A model generated the notes under the pieces. It had not been told where the DNA came from. It did no database searches and saw only the letters and a program-made list of their open reading frames with translations. 52,495 nt of DNA from a phage. The stretch is from the NCBI GenBank assembly GCA_028879995.1, contig GCA_028879995.1_4895.1; one strand, given 5' to 3'. Position numbers and translations under genes: made by a program. Shown one piece after another: positions 26,820-52,306 of this stretch. Every line of letters starts with the position of its first letter. Position 1 is the stretch's first letter.

Positions 26820-28787
26820 TTAGTGTGCCTCTGCCCAGTTACTTTCTATCTTAGCATCAGTAAGAACAGGAACACGAAGCGGTAACACAGTTTCCATGAC
26901 CCGTACGAAATCATAGAATCCATCTTCTGCTTGCTTACCAGACGGTAGAGAGAAGTTAAGCTCATCGTGTACTGTCAGGCGAGGTACGCCAATCACGTCA
27001 AAGTAACCGTCTTCATACCCTTTCAGCATTGCAGACTTCATCTGGTCCGCTGACGACCCTTGCAGCACCCGGTTGATTGCTTTGTGGGTGTCTGCCAGTT
27101 TAATGTTCGGACCGTACTCCTGACGTGCTTCTTCAAATGGCAAAGGCATCTTACCAAATCCACCACGCTTTGGAACCCATTTGTTGAACCATGTCTTCCG
27201 GCCCATAAAGGTTTCTACGTACCCCTGGCTATAACATAAATCTTCATAATGCTTCATGGTAGCACCAATGAAAGGTGCACCCTGATGATACGCCTTCAGA
27301 ACAGGTTCAGCTTCTTCAGGCGTCATTGCTAACTTACGGGCAAGAGCATTAAGCATCATGCCATACAACAAACCAAAGTTAATGGTCTTAGCCGGTTTAC
27401 GCTCTATAATGTGACCTGAGGCTTCCTTGATAATATCGACCATAACATTGTGGTAATCTGCTTCCGGGTTAGCCGCGAAAATTGCTCGTAACTCATCAGC
27501 GCCCGGGCCGACTGCAAAATGCGCCATGAATCGATATTCAATTTGGGCGTAGTCTGCTGATCCCCATCTGTGTCCGACATCCGGTACGAAACAAGCACGA
27601 AGGAGTGGTCCCAGTATTTTGTGTCGAGACGGTATATTCTGCAGATTAGGGTCAGATGAGCTAAACCGACCACTAACGGTTCCACCGTCATCACCGCGCA
27701 TTTGATGGAATTGACCGTGAAGGAAGCCATTTGTATTCATCCCCAATATATAGCCACGAATAAACGTGGACTGGATTTTCTCATAAGACTTAATCTCAGA
27801 CACCAGTTCCGCAAACGGATGGTGCAAGCCTGCTAAGAAGTCTGCCGTAAACGACGGATTGCCCGCCGCTGTTCTGAAGTACTCCAGACCTAAATGGTCA
27901 AATGCAAGAGCTAAGTCCGGACCGGAGTTAACGTTAATGTTAAAGCCAATCTGGTCTTTAATCTGCTGGTGCATTTTCCTTATTTCAGCGCTAAGCGTAT
28001 CATCCGCCTCTTTGGCTTTGTCAAGGTCAACACGCACACCTGCAAAACGCATCTTAAGCATTAATGGAATGAGCTTGCACTCCATATAGAATACGTCTGT
28101 TAAACACCAGCGACTTAACAAAGGCCACTGGGCTTTGATAATGTGTATTGGTAAGTCGGCGTCAGATTCAGCATAGTAACCCACAAGACGAGGAGGCGTT
28201 TTGTAGATGTACTTTCTGGCTTCACCTGTTGGCTTACAGCCATAAGCGTCTGAAATCCATTGGTACATCTCGGCTGAGTCTTTACCTTCGCCTACATACT
28301 TTCGTCCAAGTCCTTCAAGTGCAACACGCGCGCCTGGGTCAAGTAATGCTTCCGCGAATTGTACATCCATGCACAATCCTTTAACTTCCACGCCTTCTGC
28401 TGCAAGCCAGCCCAAGTCATATGTGATGTTAGCACCGACTTTAACTTGGTTAGGTCGCGAGAGTTCGAGCCGAAGCCAACCAAGTACTTCCTCAGCTGGA
28501 AGGTTATCCTCTTCGCCGAGCTCGTGTCTGATTGGGTAGTAAGCTTTGAAGCCGTTGTCCGTAGCGATACTAACTCCAACGATATGACCCTCCCTCCTGG
28601 CCCAACCACTACCATTTGTATCCATCCCTGGGTCGTATGTTTCACAGTCAAGACCGATAATCTTCGCAGTAGACAAATCCGGGTAATGCGCGCGCGGCCG
28701 CCATCCAGTATCCCTGACGTATGGTATAGGACGGTTGATAGGTTTAACATTCTTTGCACCTTCGAAGCTATCGAATAAAAAGCTCAT
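26820..28787 (-). CDS. DNA polymerase, family A, with 3'-5' exonuclease domain
   Basis: Exo motif LDCETYD; pol motif A DYAQIEYR, motif B KTINFGLLYGM, motif C VHDELNF; ATG 28787 (tool start 28790 is TTG). Confidence 0.9.
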   Translation of the reverse strand: MSFLFDSFEGAKNVKPINRPIPYVRDTGWRPRAHYPDLSTAKIIGLDCETYDPGMDTNGSGWARREGHIVGVSIATDNGFKAYYPIRHELGEEDNLPAEEVLGWLRLELSRPNQVKVGANITYDLGWLAAEGVEVKGLCMDVQFAEALLDPGARVALEGLGRKYVGEGKDSAEMYQWISDAYGCKPTGEARKYIYKTPPRLVGYYAESDADLPIHIIKAQWPLLSRWCLTDVFYMECKLIPLMLKMRFAGVRVDLDKAKEADDTLSAEIRKMHQQIKDQIGFNINVNSGPDLALAFDHLGLEYFRTAAGNPSFTADFLAGLHHPFAELVSEIKSYEKIQSTFIRGYILGMNTNGFLHGQFHQMRGDDGGTVSGRFSSSDPNLQNIPSRHKILGPLLRACFVPDVGHRWGSADYAQIEYRFMAHFAVGPGADELRAIFAANPEADYHNVMVDIIKEASGHIIERKPAKTINFGLLYGMMLNALARKLAMTPEEAEPVLKAYHQGAPFIGATMKHYEDLCYSQGYVETFMGRKTWFNKWVPKRGGFGKMPLPFEEARQEYGPNIKLADTHKAINRVLQGSSADQMKSAMLKGYEDGYFDVIGVPRLTVHDELNFSLPSGKQAEDGFYDFVRVMETVLPLRVPVLTDAKIESNWAEAH

Positions 28788-29782
28788 CAATCCCCTCTCA
28801 CATACGCAATTACAACTGTACGAGTTGAGTTTTCCATTTTGAGCGCCTGACTACCCAGGCCTATTCTTTCCATGCCTTTAGCCAGTTTACTCATCTGACT
28901 AATAACACAGTTGAACGGTTTACTAAACTTAGTCGACTGGAACTTAATGTCGACGGACATCTTTGGAATAATCTTATCTGGTAAGTCTGCCTTTGCAGTT
29001 GACTCGCCTGTTATCTCCAGAATAGCCTGACCTTCGTCGTACCCAGTAAGCTGGTCCATGACTTCCAGGAACTCAGGAGTGATGGCCTGCATATCCATTT
29101 CCATATTGAAGAACTTCGATACGTCTGGCCATTTGGCTGCTAGTACCGGAGCATCCATCTGTACACCATCCGCAAAGCCGAAGAACATCTGGCCGCGGGC
29201 GTAACCTACACTTGTGGGTTCCATCTTCAGCTTAACCAGAGCCTCAAGCATTGGTTTGGCTATGGCACATTCAAATTCAAAATCTACGTTCAGCTTCTCG
29301 CGTATCATATACTTACCGTTAGTTGCGTAAGCATAACCATCGCGCAGAAGTAAAGATGTTGCCCATACCTGCGGTGCTTCGTTAGGTACCCATTTGGCTA
29401 AGGCAGTTAATACCGGGAGTAATTCGCCATGCGCTGAATACCAGTTGTTAACTGTAGCAAGTGGTGGTATTGGTTCATTAAGCGCTTGCATTCTTGTTTT
29501 AAGTACGCCTGCTGTGACTGTGAGGTTTCCAGCGGCTGTAATGTTAAAAGTAATCTGTTCAGTTCTTGCCGCATTAACGGCCTTACGAAATGATTCAGCA
29601 TCCACTTGCAGGTCTGGAAATCCTTTACATGGCGCTCGTAGTAATACGTTCTTGTAGTATGAATGGATTGTTTCGTTTGCAATCCATATTTTGCCCATAA
29701 GACCGCTATCAGTATACTTGATGGGACGAGCTTGTTGAACGGCAGTCTGTATTTGTTTGGTGTCATAGTTAAACTTGCTCAT
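28787..29782 (-). CDS. Hypothetical replication protein, possibly a sliding-clamp-like protein
   Basis: 331 aa immediately upstream of and coupled to the polymerase; weak by-eye resemblance to beta-clamp repeats. Confidence 0.3.
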   Translation of the reverse strand: MSKFNYDTKQIQTAVQQARPIKYTDSGLMGKIWIANETIHSYYKNVLLRAPCKGFPDLQVDAESFRKAVNAARTEQITFNITAAGNLTVTAGVLKTRMQALNEPIPPLATVNNWYSAHGELLPVLTALAKWVPNEAPQVWATSLLLRDGYAYATNGKYMIREKLNVDFEFECAIAKPMLEALVKLKMEPTSVGYARGQMFFGFADGVQMDAPVLAAKWPDVSKFFNMEMDMQAITPEFLEVMDQLTGYDEGQAILEITGESTAKADLPDKIIPKMSVDIKFQSTKFSKPFNCVISQMSKLAKGMERIGLGSQALKMENSTRTVVIAYVRGD

Positions 29783-29812: not shown

Positions 29813-30697
29813 TTATACGGCCATTTGGAGTTTGATGTTTGGCATTGGTTTGTACTTCTCAACCATTGGCGTAACATCGGCAGGAGTGAAGTCAAACACT
29901 GACACGTCGTAAATTGCGTTAATGTCAGGACGACGTTCAAAGTTAGTGTCCAGTGTAGTATCAGAATTGCTTACGATACGTTGCAGGAAAATCTTTGCCG
30001 CATCGATATGATTCTGATAGATATGATAATCACCCAGCGTAACAGTCATGTCGCCAACACCAGTACCCAGCTCAGCAGCAATGGTAATCTGCAGCATTTG
30101 ATGCAACAGAATATCGTGAGGCAGACCAAGAATAACATCCGCGCTACGCATGTGGAACATCAGCTCTAATTCATTACGGTTGTTAATGAACAGCTGAAAA
30201 CCATGGTAACAAGGCGGAAGGGCCATGGCGTCCATCTCTTGTGGGTTCCACGCCGTAATGTACGCCCGGCGGTCAGTAGGCTTAACCTTCAGCGTTTCAA
30301 TAACGTCTTTAAGCTGGTTAGTAAGAACACCATTCTTATAGAAAGGCTTAATCCATTGTACGCCGTACACAGGACCTAAGTCACGATTGTCTGGCGTACC
30401 CCAACGTTTGTTTGCGTCCTGCAGGTTACCTTCCCACCAGTTGCAGCCAAAGCCTTTTAGCGTGTCGACGTTTGAAATGCCGTTGATAAAGCAGTAAAGC
30501 TCAGCAGCAACAGCTTTGATGTTAACAGGTTTAAACACCGGCACCATCAGTTTGTTATCGTTGAAAGCCAGCTTAAACGCTGTACCAAAACAACGGCGTG
30601 TACCAACACCTGTACGGTCTACAACATCCTCGCCTTTACGCAGGATAAAAGAAATGATGTCGCTGTAAAGAGAATCGACAGTGCTGTATGTTTTCAT
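29813..30697 (-). CDS. Thymidylate synthase-family pyrimidine C5 transferase, predicted dCMP-specific (hydroxymethylase or methylase)
   Basis: ThyA motifs DRTGVGT, DLGPVYGVQW, DRRAYITAWNP, MALPPCY, RSADVILGLPHDILL, GDYHIYQNH; the Asn of E. coli ThyA PFNIAS is Asp here (LPHDIL). Confidence 0.7.
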   Translation of the reverse strand: MKTYSTVDSLYSDIISFILRKGEDVVDRTGVGTRRCFGTAFKLAFNDNKLMVPVFKPVNIKAVAAELYCFINGISNVDTLKGFGCNWWEGNLQDANKRWGTPDNRDLGPVYGVQWIKPFYKNGVLTNQLKDVIETLKVKPTDRRAYITAWNPQEMDAMALPPCYHGFQLFINNRNELELMFHMRSADVILGLPHDILLHQMLQITIAAELGTGVGDMTVTLGDYHIYQNHIDAAKIFLQRIVSNSDTTLDTNFERRPDINAIYDVSVFDFTPADVTPMVEKYKPMPNIKLQMAV

Positions 30698-31290
30698 TAA
30701 AACAGTTCCTTTTGAGCCGGGTTAACGTGTGCGTCGATGATGGCCTGGATGTCAGGTGCTTTCCATCCTTCAGGTTTAACAATGTCCTGGCCAGACTTAT
30801 GCTTACTGTTGCTTGCATCAGGCTTAGCACGTTCTTTCGCCATGTTAGCAGCTTGTACCGCATCCCATGCAGCGTCAAGTGGCCAGTTGTTGTTTGCGCA
30901 CCAGGTAATCAGGTGGATAATTAACTGGGCCAGACGGTCGCAATGAGTGTCTTCAGTATCCTTAACGTATACAATAAGGCCATCAGCATCGAAACGGTCC
31001 ATAAATCCGCATGGCGTAGTTAACAGAATCGGATACTCAAATTCGTTGGTGAACCATGCAGTCTGGTCATACAGGTATAACGTACCTGCAGCAATGTAAA
31101 TTAAATCTACAATACCGTCTAAGAAGCCAGCTTTGTCGCCGTCTTTCTTAGCTTGTTTAATTTCTTCCATCTCCTCAATAAGACGGTCGTAACGAAGCTT
31201 GAACTCAGGTTTACCGCCTTGACTAACAGGCTTGAGGTCAAACTTCTCATGAAAAGCGGTAACGCCTGCAGCAATTTTACTGAATCGCAT
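30697..31290 (-). CDS. MazG-like all-alpha NTP pyrophosphohydrolase (candidate dCTPase/dUTPase)
   Basis: 197 aa, N-terminal EExxE-type helical motifs (HEKF...RLIEEMEEI...DLIYIA); TAATG-coupled to the ThyA-family gene; RBS AAGGAG. Confidence 0.45.
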   Translation of the reverse strand: MRFSKIAAGVTAFHEKFDLKPVSQGGKPEFKLRYDRLIEEMEEIKQAKKDGDKAGFLDGIVDLIYIAAGTLYLYDQTAWFTNEFEYPILLTTPCGFMDRFDADGLIVYVKDTEDTHCDRLAQLIIHLITWCANNNWPLDAAWDAVQAANMAKERAKPDASNSKHKSGQDIVKPEGWKAPDIQAIIDAHVNPAQKELF

Positions 31291-31701: not shown

Positions 31702-31730
31702 ATTATACCACATCACTCTCTAGTGGTAAA
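31702..31730 (-). promoter_or_regulatory. sigma70-like promoter (minus) TTTACC-N17-TATAAT
   Basis: Plus-strand attata at 31702-31707 and ggtaaa at 31725-31730; spacer contains CCAC...GTGG inverted repeat. Confidence 0.55.
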
Positions 31731-31749
31731 GCACTTTTTACGCTTCTGG

Positions 31750-31783
31750 TAAAAATAAAAAGGACCAGCGTTAACTGGTCCTT
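31750..31783 (-). terminator. Intrinsic terminator (minus strand) ending the transcript from the 32870 promoter
   Basis: 8-bp stem AGGACCAG/CTGGTCCT followed on the minus strand by TTTTATTTTT. Confidence 0.65.
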
Positions 31784-32353
31784 TTGGCAGGGTGGCGTAA
31801 GGAGATACAAGGCATCGTAACTATGCAACCAGGCAGCGCATATGAGATTGGCCAAAAGACTTACCATTTTAATCCCCGCGACGAGACGAAAAAGGAGGTG
31901 TCATCGAGTAGCCAATCACATATGCGTTACTTGCTGTGTGCTCTCACCGCGGAAAGCATAGAGCGTTGCACTTATCACACCGATGGAGTGGCAAAAGCAC
32001 ACAGCAAGTACAACCTTAGTTGTGGTGTCTTAGCACCTGAGTTATTGTGGATAACCTGCACCCGACGGGTGTCAAAAAGATACGCCAAAACACCACAACT
32101 AAAATTATGACCGCCGTCTACACCAGGCGCCTGGGGTCAAGGTAGCGAGCCAATACCCTTTTCAGCGTCGGAGGAATCGAACCTCACACATCACGGCTTT
32201 TACCAAATCTCGGTCAGCGAGCAGAATTGAACTGCATTCACTGGACACCCTCACTGTTTCAACACACCAGGCTTAATTGATTGTTGATAAGAAGAGAGAT
32301 GTAAGGATGTCCATTGAATGCACCTCCGTAGAGGTGCGTTCAGATCAGCGCTA

Positions 32354-32821
32354 TTATTCAGCAACTTCTTCGTTGTCGCCTTCGATCGCGCCAGCCAGTT
32401 TAGCAGCTTCAGCTTTAGCAGCTTCTGCTTTCTGGCGAGCTTTTTCAGCTTTCTCTTCAGCTTTGCGGATCTGCTCAGCAGCTTTCGCTTCGGCTTTTTC
32501 AGCTTTGATGCGAGCACGCTCTTCAGCTTTACGCTGTTTTTCAGCGGCTTTAGCAGCATCGCGTTCTGCTTTAGCGGTATCAACACGCTTAGCCAGAACT
32601 TTACCAGTGGCTTTACGCCAGTAGGTCAGCTGGGAAGAAACAGTACCACGGGACATTTCGGTAGTGGCAACAACTTCGTCCATAACGTCAGAGCTGGACT
32701 TGCCTTCTTCATGGGCTTTATCAGCCAGGTCCCATACGTAACGTGCGCCAGTACCAGCTGCCGGATACAGTACGCCGTTAACTTCTTCTTTACCAGTTAC
32801 AAAAGTCAGTTTCTCGCTCAT
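32354..32821 (-). CDS. Lys/Ala/Glu-repeat protein, possible histone-like DNA-binding protein
   Basis: ATG 32821 with RBS GAGGA; C-terminal 80 aa are AKAAEK/KAEE repeats; promoter 32870-32898 upstream. Confidence 0.4.
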   Translation of the reverse strand: MSEKLTFVTGKEEVNGVLYPAAGTGARYVWDLADKAHEEGKSSSDVMDEVVATTEMSRGTVSSQLTYWRKATGKVLAKRVDTAKAERDAAKAAEKQRKAEERARIKAEKAEAKAAEQIRKAEEKAEKARQKAEAAKAEAAKLAGAIEGDNEEVAE

Positions 32822-32869
32822 AATTTTTTCCTCGTCTACAGGGCTTAATGTTTGTTCGTTACGTGAGTT

Positions 32870-32898
32870 AATATACGTCATTTAAAAGAGTGTGTAAA
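32870..32898 (-). promoter_or_regulatory. sigma70-like promoter (minus) TTTACA-N17-TATATT
   Basis: Upstream of the Lys/Ala/Glu-repeat protein gene. Confidence 0.45.
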
Positions 32899-34864: not shown

Positions 34865-35743
34865 TTATTTTAAGGAAAGTTTAACGGGCTTCTCATCCTG
34901 TGGGAAGACATCAGCAGGGCGATACTCATCGCAAGCCGCTAATTGCTCTTCGATTGTTTCGAGCTCTTTCTGGTGCTTGTTGCAGTACCACACTTTGCCC
35001 TGAAGCGGTTTACTGTAATGGCAGGTTCTGCAGTTCCTGTCTGGCATTGCTCCTTTGTGGCACAGGTGATGGTATTCGCACATCCCTGGCTTGCACTCCC
35101 ACCAGATAGGTGATTCAGAAATCTTCGGCATATCCAAACCAGATTCCGCATATACAACAGCCTCCGCTTTACTCAGCTGTATGTCGCTTTCCAGTAAGTC
35201 AATCTCGACCACCTCAAAATACATCTCATCAGTGTTCTTGTTGATTGCAATATACACAGCTTGATTCAGCTTAAGCTTCCGCATGTATACCTGCATCTGG
35301 GCGTAGTGTACCGGCTTACTTGCTTTAACAGACTTGAGCTTGACTAACTCTTTAAACGACTTATCGCCATGCGTCTTGAATTCAGCAAGTGCCCATACGC
35401 CTTTGTATTTGATCACACAGTCACAAGACCCAGAGAATATGCCATTGAATTCATGTATGCGCCATTGCTTACCAGTCTTAGGATTGACGTCCAGCACTTC
35501 GTCACATACGGAACGAAGCCACTTTACAATTCTGCTTTCTTCAAGGTTACCGCGTTCAAACAGACGAAGTTGCTTAGCCGTAAACTTCTCCTTGAACGAC
35601 CAGTGCAGTACATGCCAAAGATAGCGATAGCAGTTGTGCCCTATCTGCGATGCTCCAAGATGCCCGCGTCGTTCTTCTCTTTCGTGGGCTTCGACTATCT
35701 TGATGTCAATACGTTTCTGCAGGTCGTCAAACGGACTGGACAT
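34865..35743 (-). CDS. PD-(D/E)xK nuclease, Cas4/RecB-like with Cys cluster
   Basis: ATG 35743 with RBS GAGGAG; D...EFK core, QxxxY motif (HYAQMQVY), N-terminal Cys plus C-terminal C...C...C cluster. Confidence 0.6.
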   Translation of the reverse strand: MSSPFDDLQKRIDIKIVEAHEREERRGHLGASQIGHNCYRYLWHVLHWSFKEKFTAKQLRLFERGNLEESRIVKWLRSVCDEVLDVNPKTGKQWRIHEFNGIFSGSCDCVIKYKGVWALAEFKTHGDKSFKELVKLKSVKASKPVHYAQMQVYMRKLKLNQAVYIAINKNTDEMYFEVVEIDLLESDIQLSKAEAVVYAESGLDMPKISESPIWWECKPGMCEYHHLCHKGAMPDRNCRTCHYSKPLQGKVWYCNKHQKELETIEEQLAACDEYRPADVFPQDEKPVKLSLK

Positions 35744-36212
35744 TGTTAAACTCCTCAACACTGAATTCATCGTACACAATATTATGTGCCCACAAATGAG
35801 CGACGGCATTTGCCATGCTATCTTTCCATTTGGATTGTGAAGCTGTATGTGCCAATGCAACTACACGTACCAGGTTAAGGTTGGCTATCAGCATGTCAGC
35901 GCAATGTTCGCACGGCGGGTAGGTTATGTAGATGGTAACCGGGCCTAAAGAAGGAGTGTCTAACTCGCTCCTTATATTAGCTAAGGTGTTTATCTCGCTA
36001 TGAATAGTTAGAGCGTTCTTGAGGCTATTAGGCACTATTCTTATAGAGTCTAACTGCGTAGGCAGACCGTTATATCCAGTGGAAATAATACGCTTGTTCT
36101 GGTCCACAAGAACGCTACCGACTTGACGTTTCGGGTCCTTCGACCAGCTTGCAACTTCACAAGCTATACGCATAAACCGCCTGTCCCACTTGTCCATCTT
36201 CTTCTTTTGCAT
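35727..36212 (-). CDS. dCMP deaminase
   Basis: Zinc-binding HSE...PCEHC motifs and a dCMP-deaminase-like N-terminus (WDRRFMRIA.EVA.WS). Confidence 0.8.
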   Translation of the reverse strand: MQKKKMDKWDRRFMRIACEVASWSKDPKRQVGSVLVDQNKRIISTGYNGLPTQLDSIRIVPNSLKNALTIHSEINTLANIRSELDTPSLGPVTIYITYPPCEHCADMLIANLNLVRVVALAHTASQSKWKDSMANAVAHLWAHNIVYDEFSVEEFNNVQSV

Positions 36213-38596: not shown

Positions 38597-39502
38597 TTAC
38601 AGCAGTTCTGCTTTCAGTGCAGCGATACCATCCAGCAATGCTTTGATGTCCGGGTTAGATGCCGCCAGGTCTGCAACAACTGACTGACGACGACGTTCCA
38701 GCTCTTTCTCAACTTCCAGGTCGAGGCGTGCTGACGCTTCACGCAGTAAGTCTTCAACCTGCTGACGGCGCTGATACTTGTTAAAGTCAGGTACATCAAC
38801 CAGCCATTTGAGAGTTGCAGTGTTGTAGCCAGAAGTATTGGCTGCACTTACAGACACAACATCAACAAGCTTGGTACCGTTAAGCTCCGGATAGTTAACA
38901 TTGCGAACGTCAACAACCGCTTTGTCACCTACACTTACTTTGCCGATGTACTTGTAAGTGTACACACGACCATTCGGTTCAAACTTAACACCAACAAACT
39001 TCAGTTTGTCGTCTGCAATAACTTCTTCCTCAACTTTGAAGTTGATTGCAGTATTCTTGACAGGTGCAGCCGCTTTGAGCTTAGCGACCATGTACTGTTC
39101 GGAATGAGACGGACGGCACAGACGGAAGACGTCTTCATTGTAGGTCAGCCAGTTACCGGTCTCATCCACGCATGCAATCTGATTAGTGCCATCCAGCGAA
39201 CGAACGCCCGGACGATTCTTCTCAACACGATACAGCTTACCTTCTTTCAGGTTAGCGTAAGAACGGCGGGCGATACCCCAGTTGTGTTTTTCAGATTCAT
39301 ACTTAGCGAAACGGTCAACACTGAAGTTCTGCTTCAGACCACGGTCGTCGATTACCCATAAGTTATCGTAAGCCCCGCCGAAAGAACCCAGGTTGGCATA
39401 CACTTTGCCCTGCGTCAACAGGGAAGTGTTTCCCTCGTCGACACAGATAACAAAACCCAGAGCTTCGTGTGCTTTACCGCTGCGGTCAAATACTGTAGTC
39501 AT
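38597..39502 (-). CDS. Hypothetical protein
   Basis: 301 aa; first gene after minus promoter 39585-39613. Confidence 0.45.
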   Translation of the reverse strand: MTTVFDRSGKAHEALGFVICVDEGNTSLLTQGKVYANLGSFGGAYDNLWVIDDRGLKQNFSVDRFAKYESEKHNWGIARRSYANLKEGKLYRVEKNRPGVRSLDGTNQIACVDETGNWLTYNEDVFRLCRPSHSEQYMVAKLKAAAPVKNTAINFKVEEEVIADDKLKFVGVKFEPNGRVYTYKYIGKVSVGDKAVVDVRNVNYPELNGTKLVDVVSVSAANTSGYNTATLKWLVDVPDFNKYQRRQQVEDLLREASARLDLEVEKELERRRQSVVADLAASNPDIKALLDGIAALKAELL

Positions 39503-44861: not shown

Positions 44862-45209
44862 TAAGCTTATTTTACAAACTGATTAATATTTAAACTATAA
44901 TTAAATATATGGGCTATAAGAGTATGATTTTATTACTCTTTTACTAACCATAATATATGGGCTCCTTATAAAAGATTAAGGGGGTAAAAAAGGGGGTACA
45001 AGTACCGGATAAAAGGGGGGATATATTTATTTATTATTATTATTATTATTATATATTATTAATTATATTAGAAGTAATAAAAACAGCTACTTAGAGGCGT
45101 CTATATGTATGATCCGGTTTATCTCTTTATTAATATCAGAACCGGATGAAAAAAATTTACGCCGGCGAAAAATAATAAAAAACCGGACTGATAAATAAAT
45201 CTGTAGACG
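44862..45209. repeat. AT-rich repeat-dense noncoding region (candidate replication origin)
   Basis: Two ATATATGGGCT copies, purine-rich AAGGGGGTA repeats (44977-45021), (TTA)n microsatellite near 45027-45051, inverted repeat ATCCGGTT/AACCGGAT (45112-45148); no ORF. Confidence 0.45.
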
Positions 45210-50122: not shown

Positions 50123-50797
50123 GTGATTAATATAATCTTCGCAATGGGCCAAAATGGGGAATTCGGGTTATCTCCGGAGTTTATGAAGCATCAGGTTGAC
50201 TCGTGTAAGACCATGGATGAGGTTCGTGCGCTTCCTAAATCGGGTCTCCCTTGGAAATGTCCGTCAGATATGCTCTTTTTCAGGACTATGACTAATTCAA
50301 TTGCGTCAGAACCAGGCTATAATGCGTATCAGCAACTACGTGGACAGTTCCCAAATGACCAGTTGCGAAACATGATAGCAGATGTAACTGTAAAAATGGT
50401 CGGGCATAGTGTATTGTTAGCCGGTCGTAATACGTATATGACTATGAGTCTGCCTATGTCAGCCCACAGAATACTGCTGCCTGTATCTCGTCAGATTATG
50501 GCTTCAGAAGGCTACAATAATTTGGGTGAGATGGCAGCAGACCTTGAATCCAGAGGTACTGACGTCTGGATTGTAGGCGGTGCCGAGTTGATACTTTCGG
50601 CCCTTGAAGAGCATGCAAAAGACTTACTCCGTATCGACAACATGTTTATCAGTACAATCAAGCAATCAGGTCCAAGTGATATTTTAATGGATTGTAGCAA
50701 ATTAATGATGTACATTGATAGCGACTTCACTTATAATGATGAATATGTTGATAACAAACAAGTTCTGATACAACGGTACAGGAGTTTACACAAATGA
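50123..50797 (+). CDS. Dihydrofolate reductase-like protein
   Basis: GTG 50123; DHFR-like N-terminus MINIIFAMGQNGEFG, LPWKCPSDMLFFRTMT (compare E. coli MPWNLPADLAWFKRNT), IVGGAELILSAL; contains a long insertion. Confidence 0.55.
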   Translation: MINIIFAMGQNGEFGLSPEFMKHQVDSCKTMDEVRALPKSGLPWKCPSDMLFFRTMTNSIASEPGYNAYQQLRGQFPNDQLRNMIADVTVKMVGHSVLLAGRNTYMTMSLPMSAHRILLPVSRQIMASEGYNNLGEMAADLESRGTDVWIVGGAELILSALEEHAKDLLRIDNMFISTIKQSGPSDILMDCSKLMMYIDSDFTYNDEYVDNKQVLIQRYRSLHK

Positions 50798-51300
50798 ACA
50801 TCATAATCGAGGGGCCCGACAATGCTGGTAAAAGTACACTTATTGAGTTCCTTAAATCTCATACTGGCCGCAGTGTTATTCATAATACTGTTGATAAAGA
50901 CCCCGAATCGGTCATGGCTAAACAGGCCAAAGAAAACGCGTTGGAGGGCGATTGCATTTATGACCGTAGCGCTGTTATATCTGAGTATATCTATTGCCTG
51001 GTTCTTCAACGTACGCCTGTCATCAATATTAATGTATCACATGTAGCAGATATGTGTGACAACGCCATCGTTATCTTTTGTATGCCGCCTGTTGAAAAGG
51101 TACTGGCAACTACAAAAGACGAGATGCCTGGCGTTGTGGAAAATCTTGAGGCGTTATACAATCAGTATGACAACCTCATTGACGAGCTGGTTATGATGAG
51201 TAAGCAGTTCTTCATTTACGACTGGACTGTTGAAGAAGATGGTCCTGAAGCAGCTCTCGAATACATCAACGAACGTATTAATAAGGAGTGGAACAAATGA
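50794..51300 (+). CDS. Deoxynucleoside monophosphate kinase (thymidylate-kinase-like P-loop kinase)
   Basis: N-terminal P-loop IIIEGPDNAGKSTL; 168 aa; ATGA coupling to the DHFR-like gene. Confidence 0.55.
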   Translation: MNIIIEGPDNAGKSTLIEFLKSHTGRSVIHNTVDKDPESVMAKQAKENALEGDCIYDRSAVISEYIYCLVLQRTPVININVSHVADMCDNAIVIFCMPPVEKVLATTKDEMPGVVENLEALYNQYDNLIDELVMMSKQFFIYDWTVEEDGPEAALEYINERINKEWNK

Positions 51301-52016
51301 GCCCAGTATACAATACCTCAGTCACGCTGTCCGCAACCGTAAGCGGCGTCAACAAGACAGTTACTGTGGGTTCAACTAACCCAAACCTGACAGGCGAAGA
51401 CCTGCTGCGCCTGGCCAAACGTGCACTTGAAGATAACGAAGTAACTGGTACTGAAGGCGTTAACATTGAAATTAACGTCGAAGGATGTCCGCACAGCATC
51501 AGTATTGCTACCTCTTCATTGCCTGAAGACGAGACTCGTGAACAGCTGGAAATTAAAAAGTTCAACGATGAGCTGGAATATCGCACAGGTGAGATGTTCA
51601 GCAGTGCACTAAACTGGTACTTGTGCAAGGCTTCAAACTACGCTGGCGCTCCTATGTCAGACCGTATGTTAGCTGATATGTCAGCACGTGAAATTGCTAA
51701 AGGCTGGGCGCATGTACAGATGCTGCAAGAGCATATCTGCAAGCTGGAAAGCTGCAATAAAGACGCGTCTGAGCTTATTACTGCCTATAAGCGACAGATT
51801 AACGACCTGCAGCAACTGATGGGTAAACGCGCTGAAGAATATGAGGCTGAGATTCGCAGTCTTAATGGTACAGCTGTTGCTAACAACCGTGCTTTCAGCG
51901 AAGAGCGTAAAGCGCTTATCGCCCAGCGTGACGCTGAAAAACGTCGTGCAGACGACCTGGCAGACCGTCTTAACTTTATCCGTAAGCACATGGATGCTAT
52001 GGAAGGGGTAATCTGA
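51297..52016 (+). CDS. Hypothetical protein
   Basis: ATG 51297 with RBS AAGGAG (tool start 51288 is GTG); 239 aa, coiled-coil-like C-terminal half. Confidence 0.4.
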   Translation: MSPVYNTSVTLSATVSGVNKTVTVGSTNPNLTGEDLLRLAKRALEDNEVTGTEGVNIEINVEGCPHSISIATSSLPEDETREQLEIKKFNDELEYRTGEMFSSALNWYLCKASNYAGAPMSDRMLADMSAREIAKGWAHVQMLQEHICKLESCNKDASELITAYKRQINDLQQLMGKRAEEYEAEIRSLNGTAVANNRAFSEERKALIAQRDAEKRRADDLADRLNFIRKHMDAMEGVI

Positions 52017-52306
52017 TGGACCTGTTCGATATGGTCGAACATCCTGAAGTAAACGGCTTGGCGGAAGCTAAGCCTTTTAACTGGGATGAATTCGTAGCAG
52101 GCAAACCTGCTGTAACCCACAACGGGCAGATTGCATATTACGGAGGCCATAGCGAACATCCGATGTGCACTCACCTGTACAACGCTATCACAACCATATC
52201 CGACGAAAACGTTATTAAGTACGGAAAAGAGGTAATGCCTTTTCTTGTAGATGAACGCGGTTACTTCGAAGGTAAATGGTTCCCGTTTCTGGTAGAAATG
52301 GCCTAA
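52016..52306 (+). CDS. Hypothetical protein
   Basis: 96 aa; ATG overlaps upstream stop. Confidence 0.35.
   Translation: MDLFDMVEHPEVNGLAEAKPFNWDEFVAGKPAVTHNGQIAYYGGHSEHPMCTHLYNAITTISDENVIKYGKEVMPFLVDERGYFEGKWFPFLVEMA

Follow-up and report, generated by a model that had tools for sequence, protein, structure and literature searches.

A thymidylate synthase homolog with aspartate at the Asn177 position points to a probable XP12-type 5-methylcytosine pathway in Salmonella phage BP63

Does the gene annotated as thymidylate synthase in Salmonella phage BP63 supply the phage with thymidylate, or does its product act on a cytosine nucleotide and help to replace cytosine in phage DNA? The question is raised by a 1478-bp region (29813-31290) of the 52,495-nt stretch of phage DNA analyzed here, hereafter the window, in which two genes on the minus strand encode a ThyA-family enzyme, gp55 (29813-30697, 294 aa), and a PRA-PH/MazG-like all-alpha nucleoside triphosphate (NTP) pyrophosphohydrolase, gp56 (30697-31290, 197 aa). 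The window is the BP63 record (KM366099/NC_031250; Rosemountvirus) rotated by 7406 bp, and the genome has a G+C content of about 46%. The region is 100% identical to BP63, and dozens of Salmonella and Escherichia phages match it at 95-98% identity. A ThyA gene of the BP63 type occurs in 62 GenBank records and is labelled "thymidylate synthase" in all annotated records examined, and the neighboring PRA-PH gene appears in GenBank as "hypothetical", "Cof hydrolase" or "nucleotide pyrophosphohydrolase". An initial annotation of the window had proposed that the pair belongs to a T4-like pathway replacing cytosine with a C5-modified cytosine. We find that BP63 probably encodes a pre-replicative pathway of the type known from phage XP12, in which 5-methylcytosine (5mC) takes the place of cytosine.

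Membership of gp55 in the ThyA family extends over its full length, with residues 11-294 matching positions 3-266 of the 266-position PF00303 profile (E=1e-62); phrog_160 was matched at 2e-80 and thymidylate synthases (TS) of the Protein Data Bank (PDB) at E-values down to 6.5e-41. The sequence motifs named in the initial annotation (DRTGVGT, DLGPVYGVQW, DRRAYITAWNP, PPC, RSADV, LPHDIL, and GDYHIYQNH) are all found in the translation, supporting its view that the catalytic core is kept, and both open reading frames (ORFs) and their TAATG coupling are present on the minus strand, the stop/start overlap reading ...CTG TTT TAATG AAA ACA.... Its central claim, an Asp at the position equivalent to Asn177 of E. 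coli ThyA, was borne out by three independent gap-free alignments, and the misalignment that could have undone it did not appear. HMMER placed RSADVILGLPHDILLHQML on RSADVFLGVPFNIASYALL of PDB entry 6auj without a gap and with Asp in the Asn177 column, and MAFFT alignment with E. coli ThyA, using a reference sequence checked to be identical to PDB 1aob, gave the same register, gap-free from the RS(x)D motif to the Asp. D195 of gp55 therefore corresponds to E. coli N177 and C163 to the nucleophile Cys146, and the other equivalents (E. coli residue in brackets) are M183 (Q165), Y164 (H147), H199 (Y181), L160 (L143), and D187 (D169); E. coli numbering is used below. Cys146, the phosphate-binding arginines R21, R126', R127', and R166, as well as E58, Y94, S167, H207, and Y209, are found in BP63 and throughout the related proteins that carry D177, and W80 and W83 are also retained in gp55. 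In contrast, Asn177, which reads O4/N3 of uracil, and His147 and Gln165, which belong to a water network reaching O4 of deoxyuridine monophosphate (dUMP), mark a canonical dUMP-specific thymidylate synthase (EC 2.1.1.45) and are all replaced.

The same substitutions define a whole group of proteins. A search of 5.8 billion proteins recovered a discrete clade of BP63-type ThyA homologs made up of 31 clusters, 50-99% identical to BP63 and located mostly on contigs of 44-54 kb, the size of a phage genome, after which similarity dropped sharply to ordinary ThyA proteins at 37% identity or less. In a joint alignment, H147, Q165, N177, and Y181 were present in every one of the 89 ordinary ThyA matches, whereas Y147, M165, and H181 were found in all 31 clusters of the clade. 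D177 occurred in 29 of these clusters and in none of the 89 ordinary proteins, and the Asp is therefore not a chance substitution. The remaining functional positions (R21, E58, W80, Y94, R126, L143, C146, R166, S167, D169, H207, Y209, and the C-terminal residue) are canonical across the clade, W83 and R127 being altered only in the two members that carry Asn177. Positions 147 and 177 are also those that best separate TS homologs of modified-cytosine contigs from those of unmodified ones (MetaGPA, PMC8670742). The two reference enzymes specific for cytosine likewise have a hydrophobic residue at position 165 (Leu for XP12 and Met for T4 gp42), and the XP12 enzyme also has His181. Judged on these sequence signatures, we consider the Asp-for-Asn cytosine switch in gp55 to be real. 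Over its length, gp55 shares 34% identity with E. coli ThyA and about 37% with cellular ThyA proteins and T4-like td, but 27% with the XP12 enzyme and 22% with T4 gp42. Direct membership in the XP12 enzyme clade was rejected on the 27% identity, and the BP63-type enzymes instead form a D177 lineage apart from that clade, presumably XP12-like in the way they work.

Which product such an enzyme would make from deoxycytidine monophosphate (dCMP) can be read from further positions. A recent residue code (PMC13326640, 2026) links N177D to dCMP as the substrate, a bulky hydrophobic residue at 143 to a methyl product, Asp or Glu at 143, which lets water reach the exocyclic methylene, to a hydroxymethyl product (as in T4 gp42 and MilA), and D169N to flavin-dependent 5-hydroxy-dCMP synthases such as RB69 gp48 and DLP3 gp80. 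An engineered N177D thymidylate synthase makes 5-methyl-dCMP, according to work cited in PMC8670742. The motifs MALPPC and RSADV give gp55 L143 and D169, and its C-terminal sequence (...PMPNIKLQMAV) lines up over its whole length with that of E. coli ThyA (...PHPGIKAPVAI), while T4 gp42 stops about 30 alignment columns earlier. This C-terminal tail is the segment that shuts the TS active site for hydride transfer. All three features of a reductively methylating enzyme (a non-acidic residue 143, a retained D169, and the C-terminal closing segment) are thus present in gp55, which has neither the acidic residue 143 and shortened tail of a gp42-type enzyme nor the D169N and L143E combination of a 5-hydroxy-dCMP synthase. 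Furthermore, a phage dihydrofolate reductase (DHFR) is needed only if dihydrofolate (DHF) is made, and the presence of such a gene in BP63 therefore favors reductive methylation. Because of L143, D169, the full C-terminus, and the phage DHFR, gp55 is predicted to be a dCMP C5-methyltransferase (5-methyl-dCMP synthase) that yields 5-methyl-dCMP rather than 5-hydroxymethyl-dCMP or 5-hydroxy-dCMP.

Engineered enzymes offer a close parallel. The E. coli N177D and L. casei N229D thymidylate synthases (Liu & Santi 1992; Hardy & Nalivaika 1992), as cited in PMC8670742 and PMC13326640, are TS scaffolds that methylate dCMP after a single Asn-to-Asp change, and gp55 would essentially be a natural version of such an enzyme that has kept the hydride-transfer apparatus. 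Unlike the engineered proteins, BP63 adds fixed H147Y, Q165M, Y181H, and F176H substitutions, which probably tune the enzyme for cytosine. The 5-hydroxy-dCMP synthases RB69 gp48 and DLP3 gp80 (PMC13326640) are also N177D ThyA homologs that act on dCMP before replication together with a phage deoxynucleoside monophosphate (dNMP) kinase, but D169N and L143E are present in them, they are flavin-binding, and arabinosyl or glycosyl transferases act after them; BP63 retains D169 and L143, and the ORFs scanned yielded no transferases.

The partner protein gp56 belongs to the all-alpha NTP pyrophosphohydrolase superfamily, which includes MazG, HisE PRA-PH, and dimeric dUTPases, as indicated by profile matches (PF01503, 1.9e-07; phrog_671, 9.7e-25), by its conserved acidic metal-binding residues, and by a helical-bundle fold that a confident structure model likens to dimeric dUTPases. 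A search of a large protein database with gp56 returned only 37 relatives, proteins of XP12 and Bosa among them. We infer that gp56 is a pyrophosphatase for deoxycytidine triphosphate (dCTP), and possibly for deoxyuridine triphosphate (dUTP), that removes dCTP and supplies dCMP. This role is assigned because of the coupling of its gene to that of gp55, the loss of its catalytic residues in the Asn177 lineage, and the fusion of a related protein to a kinase, the last two of which are described below.

Additional enzymes that could serve the same pathway are encoded elsewhere in the window, as the initial annotation had noted for a deaminase, a DHFR, a kinase, and a family A DNA polymerase, all of which we found; the range 50123-51300 covers the DHFR and the kinase genes together and not the kinase alone. 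The zinc deaminase gp63 (35727-36212, minus strand) is of the dCMP/dCTP type (PF00383, 3.3e-21), with the dCMP/dCTP deaminase of PBCV-1 (7FH4) as its best PDB relative, and would make thymidine mono- or triphosphate (dTMP or dTTP) from the 5-methyldeoxycytidine nucleotide pool, or dUMP from dCMP. A precedent for the former is mSCD-B5, a deaminase that turns 5-methyl-dCTP (5mdCTP) into dTTP (bioRxiv 10.1101/2024.12.05.627091). On the plus strand, the DHFR-like protein gp15 (50123-50797; PF00186, 9.1e-07, 29.2 bits for a cut-off of 25; phrog_316, 1.8e-26) would recycle the DHF released by reductive methylation, and the thymidylate-kinase-like dNMP kinase gp16 (50794-51300; phrog_761, 1.8e-26), for which a PDB sequence search gave a P-loop match only, would phosphorylate 5-methyl-dCMP as well as dTMP. 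The family A DNA polymerase gp53 (26820-28790, minus strand), identified from its ORF and annotation and by synteny in distant relatives, is the presumed user of 5-methyl-dCTP, and its gene is apparently co-transcribed with that of gp55. DNA_pol_A is known to co-localize with such cassettes in modified contigs (bioRxiv 10.1101/2024.12.05.627091).

The closest precedent for this gene set comes from XP12, whose DNA contains 5mC in place of all cytosine and whose TS homolog, once expressed, gave 5-methyldeoxycytidine experimentally (bioRxiv 10.1101/2024.12.05.627091). A single block of the XP12 genome holds a "HAD hydrolase" gene, a D177 TS homolog, a dCMP deaminase, and a DHFR. The product annotated as "hydrolase (HAD superfamily)" (QNN97215; L003:46207-46980), encoded directly upstream of the dCMP methyltransferase, is a PRA-PH protein (PF01503, 6.6e-15), and it is homologous to BP63 gp56 (BLASTP 3e-11 and 3e-07), with the common motifs EExxE...VDLIY and DAVQAANMAK...VKPEGW. 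The deaminases of the two phages are 33% identical (E=7e-23) and both DHFRs match PF00186, so that BP63 has the XP12-type companion genes for PRA-PH, deaminase, and DHFR. When all BP63 ORFs were compared with XP12 by tblastn, only the TS, PRA-PH, and deaminase genes, the terminase, and two weak matches in the head region were recovered. The BP63 enzyme further shares with that of XP12, and with PaMx74/AXL1-type Bradleyvirinae, D177, a hydrophobic residue 165, His181, D169, and a C-terminal segment that gp42 lacks, and in both BP63 and XP12 the PRA-PH gene lies directly upstream of the TS gene. The two systems differ in other respects: BP63 is a myovirus of Enterobacteriaceae and XP12 a siphovirus of Xanthomonas, the BP63 genes are distributed over two operons instead of one block, the phrog_761 kinase of BP63 has no BLAST-detectable counterpart in XP12, and the XP12 product was shown experimentally whereas that of BP63 is predicted from genes. 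Two side observations concern annotation and gene content around the XP12 PRA-PH gene. The name "Cof hydrolase" given in Rosemountvirus records seems to repeat the "HAD hydrolase" error of XP12, and an XP12 gene beside the PRA-PH gene (L003:46973-47455) has a match to the HhH-GPD superfamily of base-excision glycosylases (PF00730, 5e-07), with no counterpart seen in BP63.

The association of these genes also recurs outside the two phages. In relatives whose TS is 53-56% identical to that of BP63, the order deaminase, exonuclease, helicase, MazG-like gene abutting the ThyA-like gene, polymerase accessory subunit, and PolA is kept. Of four unrelated contigs carrying members of the PRA-PH subfamily, three encode a divergent D177 ThyA homolog within about 3 kb, followed immediately or after one short ORF by a dCMP deaminase gene. 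These three ThyA homologs have Ile or Leu at 165 and are only 18-20% identical to BP63 and 16-23% identical to the other ThyA-family proteins compared. Homologs of the BP63 kinase adjoin the PRA-PH genes in these cassettes, and in one case (P0214, L010:5001-5972) the two are fused into a 323-aa protein, phrog_761 matching residues 1-135 and phrog_671 residues 167-313, beside a D177 ThyA homolog and a deaminase. The same Pfam families occur together in the "modified cytosine" cassettes of MetaGPA (PMC8670742; bioRxiv 10.1101/2024.12.05.627091), where TS(N177D), PRA-PH, deaminase, and PolA co-localize and five of the seven TS homologs tested made 5-methyl-dCMP (bioRxiv 10.1101/2024.12.05.627091); those cassettes come from anonymous metaviromic contigs, whereas BP63 represents a cultured and widely used phage genus. 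Cytosine modification of a more elaborate kind may be encoded by an unrelated cassette (L011:3664-10474), in which PRA-PH, a D177 ThyA homolog, and a deaminase occur together with an asparagine-synthase-like gene, two DNA methyltransferases (one C5 and one N6/N4), and a ThyX of its own.

The two clade members with Asn177 provide a natural control for the link between gp55 and gp56. Both are metagenomic (P0013, L014:33-1462; P0020, L015:1-931), are 81% identical to each other, and read GLPHNIVFHQ around position 177 while keeping Y147, M165, and H181. The ORF that abuts the TS gene upstream in P0013 is a remote MazG-like homolog (3e-07) that has lost nearly all residues invariant in the subfamily, every catalytic acid included (E39N, E40S, E43A, D58K, D62H, N149D, K172N, G175Q, and W176L). 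In P0020, the 52 nt available upstream encode the same degenerate motif, with a stop before KPEGW. The pyrophosphohydrolase is thus intact beside an Asp177 TS and decayed beside an Asn177 TS, the Asn sample consisting of two short contigs of one lineage, and this pattern is what a functional coupling of the two enzymes predicts. From its sequences, the P0013/P0020 lineage looks like one that abandoned cytosine modification.

A restriction phenotype has been published for one relative with the same enzyme signature. The ThyA homolog of phage S144 (Loughboroughvirus) is 74% identical to that of BP63, carries the identical residue signature, and has the same neighbor genes. Of the enzymes tried on S144 DNA prepared from three hosts, SspI and PacI alone cut it, whereas XhoI, EheI, Bsp120I, Cfr42I, NotI, MauBI, and SspDI left it intact (PMC7432712); its authors suggested that cytosine was possibly modified, found no responsible gene, and took the ThyA homolog for an ordinary TS. 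This A/T-only cutting pattern matches that of the 5mC phages XP12, whose DNA resists about 90% of enzymes, ApaI included, but is open to KpnI, AhdI, BstNI, and MboII, and AXL1, whose DNA was cut by 5 of 31 enzymes from a panel that included XhoI, NotI, MauBI, and ApaI. Our literature search found no further restriction data on swi3, the SPLA phages, vB_SenM-1, ZCSE2, PA13076, S1, or LPSEYT, and no report that connects these phages with 5mC or a dCMP methylase.

A sugar or another group added to the methylated base would call for further enzymes, and these were searched for among the ORFs of the window. In agreement with the initial annotation, which had seen no glucosyltransferase, Pfam searches of the ORFs scanned gave no TET/JBP, glycosyl-, carbamoyl-, or aminoacyl-transferase, DNA kinase, C5 methyltransferase (C5-MTase), or DpdA/Que genes. 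An explanation by 7-deazaguanine or by a DNA methyltransferase was rejected on the same scan, which found no DpdA/Que, C5-MTase, or TET domains. The candidates for a glucosyltransferase proposed at 51297-52306 fared no better. ORF 51288-52016 has no Pfam match, homologs only in this phage group, and no glycosyltransferase or epimerase fold, and was rejected as a glucosyltransferase: its AF2 model consists of a small beta/alpha domain and a single helix of about 115 residues, without a Rossmann fold and with a best Foldseek E-value of 0.2. ORF 52016-52306 has no Pfam match either, and among the large ORFs, 38597-39502, like 51288-52016, gave no Pfam domain. The homolog of ORF 51288-52016 in SE4 is labelled "UDP-glucose 4-epimerase" in GenBank, a label that the model does not support. 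The most likely base is 5mC without a sugar.

Taken together, the observations lead us to propose the following sequence of events in BP63. The pyrophosphohydrolase gp56 would hydrolyze dCTP to dCMP, keeping deoxycytidine out of the DNA and feeding gp55. With Asp195 in place of Asn177, gp55 would use methylene-tetrahydrofolate to convert dCMP to 5-methyl-dCMP and DHF by reductive methylation, and the phage DHFR would restore tetrahydrofolate (THF). The thymidylate-kinase-like enzyme, together with the host nucleoside diphosphate kinase, would then raise 5-methyl-dCMP to 5-methyl-dCTP, which the family A polymerase would build into DNA, and the deaminase could divert part of the methylated pool to dTMP and dTTP. 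Such a pathway adds no new mechanistic principle beyond XP12; BP63 would be a previously unrecognized member of a known 5mC pathway in a practically important phage group.

Several points weigh against this reading. The substrates and products assigned at every step, like the base composition proposed for the virion DNA of BP63 and other Rosemountvirus phages, are inferred from gene identities, from the residue signature, and from the XP12 homology, recurring cassettes, and reported S144 resistance described above. The XP12 enzyme has Asn and not a bulky hydrophobic residue in the column aligned with 143, where BP63 has Leu, so that the position-143 rule is a correlation and no law, and at 27% identity to XP12 the BP63 enzyme is nearer to E. 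coli ThyA (34%). F176H may affect folate binding, and the phage DHFR could merely serve the host ThyA. BP63 gp56 shows no BLASTP similarity to T4 gp56 (E=8.5), which matches PF08761 (dUTPase_2) in place of PF01503, the resemblance being at the level of the fold only. The S144 digests show a block at G/C-containing sites, which fits 5mC but also 5-hydroxymethylcytosine (5hmC), another cytosine adduct, or a guanine modification. Finally, 5mC DNA is restricted by McrBC, McrA, and Mrr, all of them present in E. coli K-12, and we identified no countermeasure to Type IV restriction of the kind that a 5mC phage would need in K-12. The record of phage CF2 (KY608966.1), 96% identical to BP63 in this region, filed as Tequatrovirus and flagged UNVERIFIED, names K-12 MG1655 as its host; such a host would matter for a 5mC phage. 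This mis-classified record and PP583539.1, a "Listeria phage" record 97% identical to these Salmonella phages, look like labelling problems.

Other explanations of the locus have to be set against the same evidence. The T4 framing is the part of the initial proposal that did not survive, while its core, a dCMP-directed ThyA homolog acting with a pyrophosphohydrolase toward a C5-modified cytosine, is supported by the residue signature, the cassette, and the S144 resistance. In T4, as proposed for BP63, dCTP is destroyed, dCMP is modified by an Asp177 ThyA homolog (gp42), and a phage kinase re-phosphorylates the product; the pyrophosphohydrolase, kinase, and deaminase of BP63 are formally analogous to T4 gp56, gp1, and cd, both gp56 proteins belong structurally to the same all-alpha NTP-PPase/dimeric-dUTPase superfamily, and the S144 pattern is compatible with 5hmC. 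That gp55 is a dCMP hydroxymethylase whose 5-hydroxymethyl-dCMP is possibly decorated, for example glucosylated, after replication is nevertheless clearly unlikely, as gp42 (with Asp), MilA, and RB69-type enzymes carry Asp or Glu at 143 where gp55 has Leu, the TS tail absent from gp42 is complete in gp55, and gp55 shares only 22% identity with gp42 compared with 34% for E. coli ThyA. Moreover, a hydroxymethylase yields THF and would leave the phage DHFR superfluous, the helper genes are homologous to those of XP12 and not to those of T4, the pyrophosphatases of T4 and BP63 have no pairwise similarity, and no glycosyltransferase, TET, or other transferase was detectable in the scanned ORFs, ORF 51288-52016 lacking a transferase fold. 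The XP12-type 5mC pathway is therefore the best-supported reading, ahead of a T4-type hydroxymethyl/glucosyl pathway. We also consider it very improbable that gp55 is an ordinary thymidylate synthase turning dUMP from the deaminase into dTMP, with the MazG-like protein as a housekeeping or dUTP-cleaning enzyme and the DNA unmodified. Its highest overall similarity is to genuine TS, its catalytic residues are canonical except at 147, 165, 177, and 181, two clade members have Asn177, and deaminase, TS, DHFR, and thymidylate kinase make up a textbook dTTP pathway, the interpretation chosen by the S144 authors. However, Asp177 separates the clade from every ordinary ThyA aligned, N177D switches TS to dCMP (in work cited in PMC8670742 and PMC13326640), seven enzymes with G/C-containing sites failed to cut the DNA of S144, which has the same enzyme signature, a decayed pyrophosphohydrolase accompanies precisely the Asn177 variants, and the helpers are homologous to those of the 5mC phage XP12.

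Less conventional fates of the product deserve the same scrutiny. Genes for 5mC-selective deaminases, which convert 5mdCTP to dTTP, lie next to those of D177 TS homologs (bioRxiv 10.1101/2024.12.05.627091), the BP63 deaminase is related to the XP12 and PBCV-1 dCMP/dCTP deaminases, and no second TS or ThyX was found in BP63, all of which would suit a bypass in which dCMP is carried through 5-methyl-dCMP and 5-methyl-dCTP to dTTP by the deaminase, giving host-independent thymidine and 5mC in place of only part of the cytosine. We regard this as decidedly improbable, given that an intact pyrophosphohydrolase accompanies D177 and is lost with N177, which suggests active removal of the competing nucleotide, that the uncut state of S144 DNA at every G/C-containing site tested argues for near-complete substitution, and that the same gene set leads to complete replacement in XP12. 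A base other than 5mC as the source of the restriction resistance, either a hypermodified cytosine built on the gp55 product by an ORF of unassigned function or a modified guanine, with gp55 as a first step or unrelated, is highly improbable. Roughly half of the genes in BP63 lack a functional assignment, the S144 digests leave the identity of the base unspecified, and ThyA homologs can have unexpected chemistry, such as flavin-dependent 5-hydroxylation (PMC13326640); against this stand the Pfam scan, the lack of a Pfam domain in 38597-39502 and 51288-52016 and of an enzyme-like fold in the model of the latter, and the retention of D169, which argues against a 5-hydroxy-dCMP synthase. Lastly, the BP63-type enzymes may be an independently evolved cytosine-directed ThyA lineage whose product or its fate is not simple 5mC, involving a new C5 adduct, post-replicative elaboration by an ORF of unassigned function, or a dual dUMP/dCMP methylase giving both T and 5mC from a single active site, with the Asn177 sub-lineage as a recent exit from DNA modification; we consider this unlikely.

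Some further features of the window were recorded around these genes. The minus strand at 31702-31785 contains a hairpin resembling a terminator (31785-31758) and, after it, a site resembling a promoter (31730-31702; TTTACC-17-TATAAT with TG). The pair, supported by consensus matches only, from a consensus scan and the RefSeq promoter annotation, is probably the start of a unit comprising gp57 and then the MazG-like, ThyA-like, and polymerase genes. The ORF at 32354-32881 has a Lys/Ala/Glu-rich low-complexity C-terminal half and no Pfam match, and several frames on both strands are open over long stretches of 32251-32881. The gene of a Cas4-domain PD-(D/E)XK exonuclease (34865-35860) overlaps that of the deaminase at the latter's end; AXL1, an XP12-related and restriction-resistant phage, also has Cas4-like nucleases, and its authors speculated on a link with DNA modification. 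At 45032-45088 the window contains a very A/T-rich stretch of 57 bp (TTATTATTATT...) that the linear GenBank record lacks. The stretch lies where the end of that record would join its start, and it may be genome-end sequence trimmed from the deposited version.

Rosemountvirus and Loughboroughvirus are among the most often isolated and applied phages for the biocontrol of Salmonella and E. coli. If their DNA is fully 5mC-substituted, this would explain their restriction resistance and part of their polyvalent host range, and it would predict sensitivity to Type IV (McrBC/Mrr-like) and BisI/MspJI-type defenses. The cloning and engineering of these phages, as well as their bisulfite and nanopore sequencing, would be affected. 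Such enterobacterial phages, being easy to grow, would also supply fully 5mC DNA, together with a ThyA-like dCMP methylase for which nature offers an Asn177 comparison enzyme.

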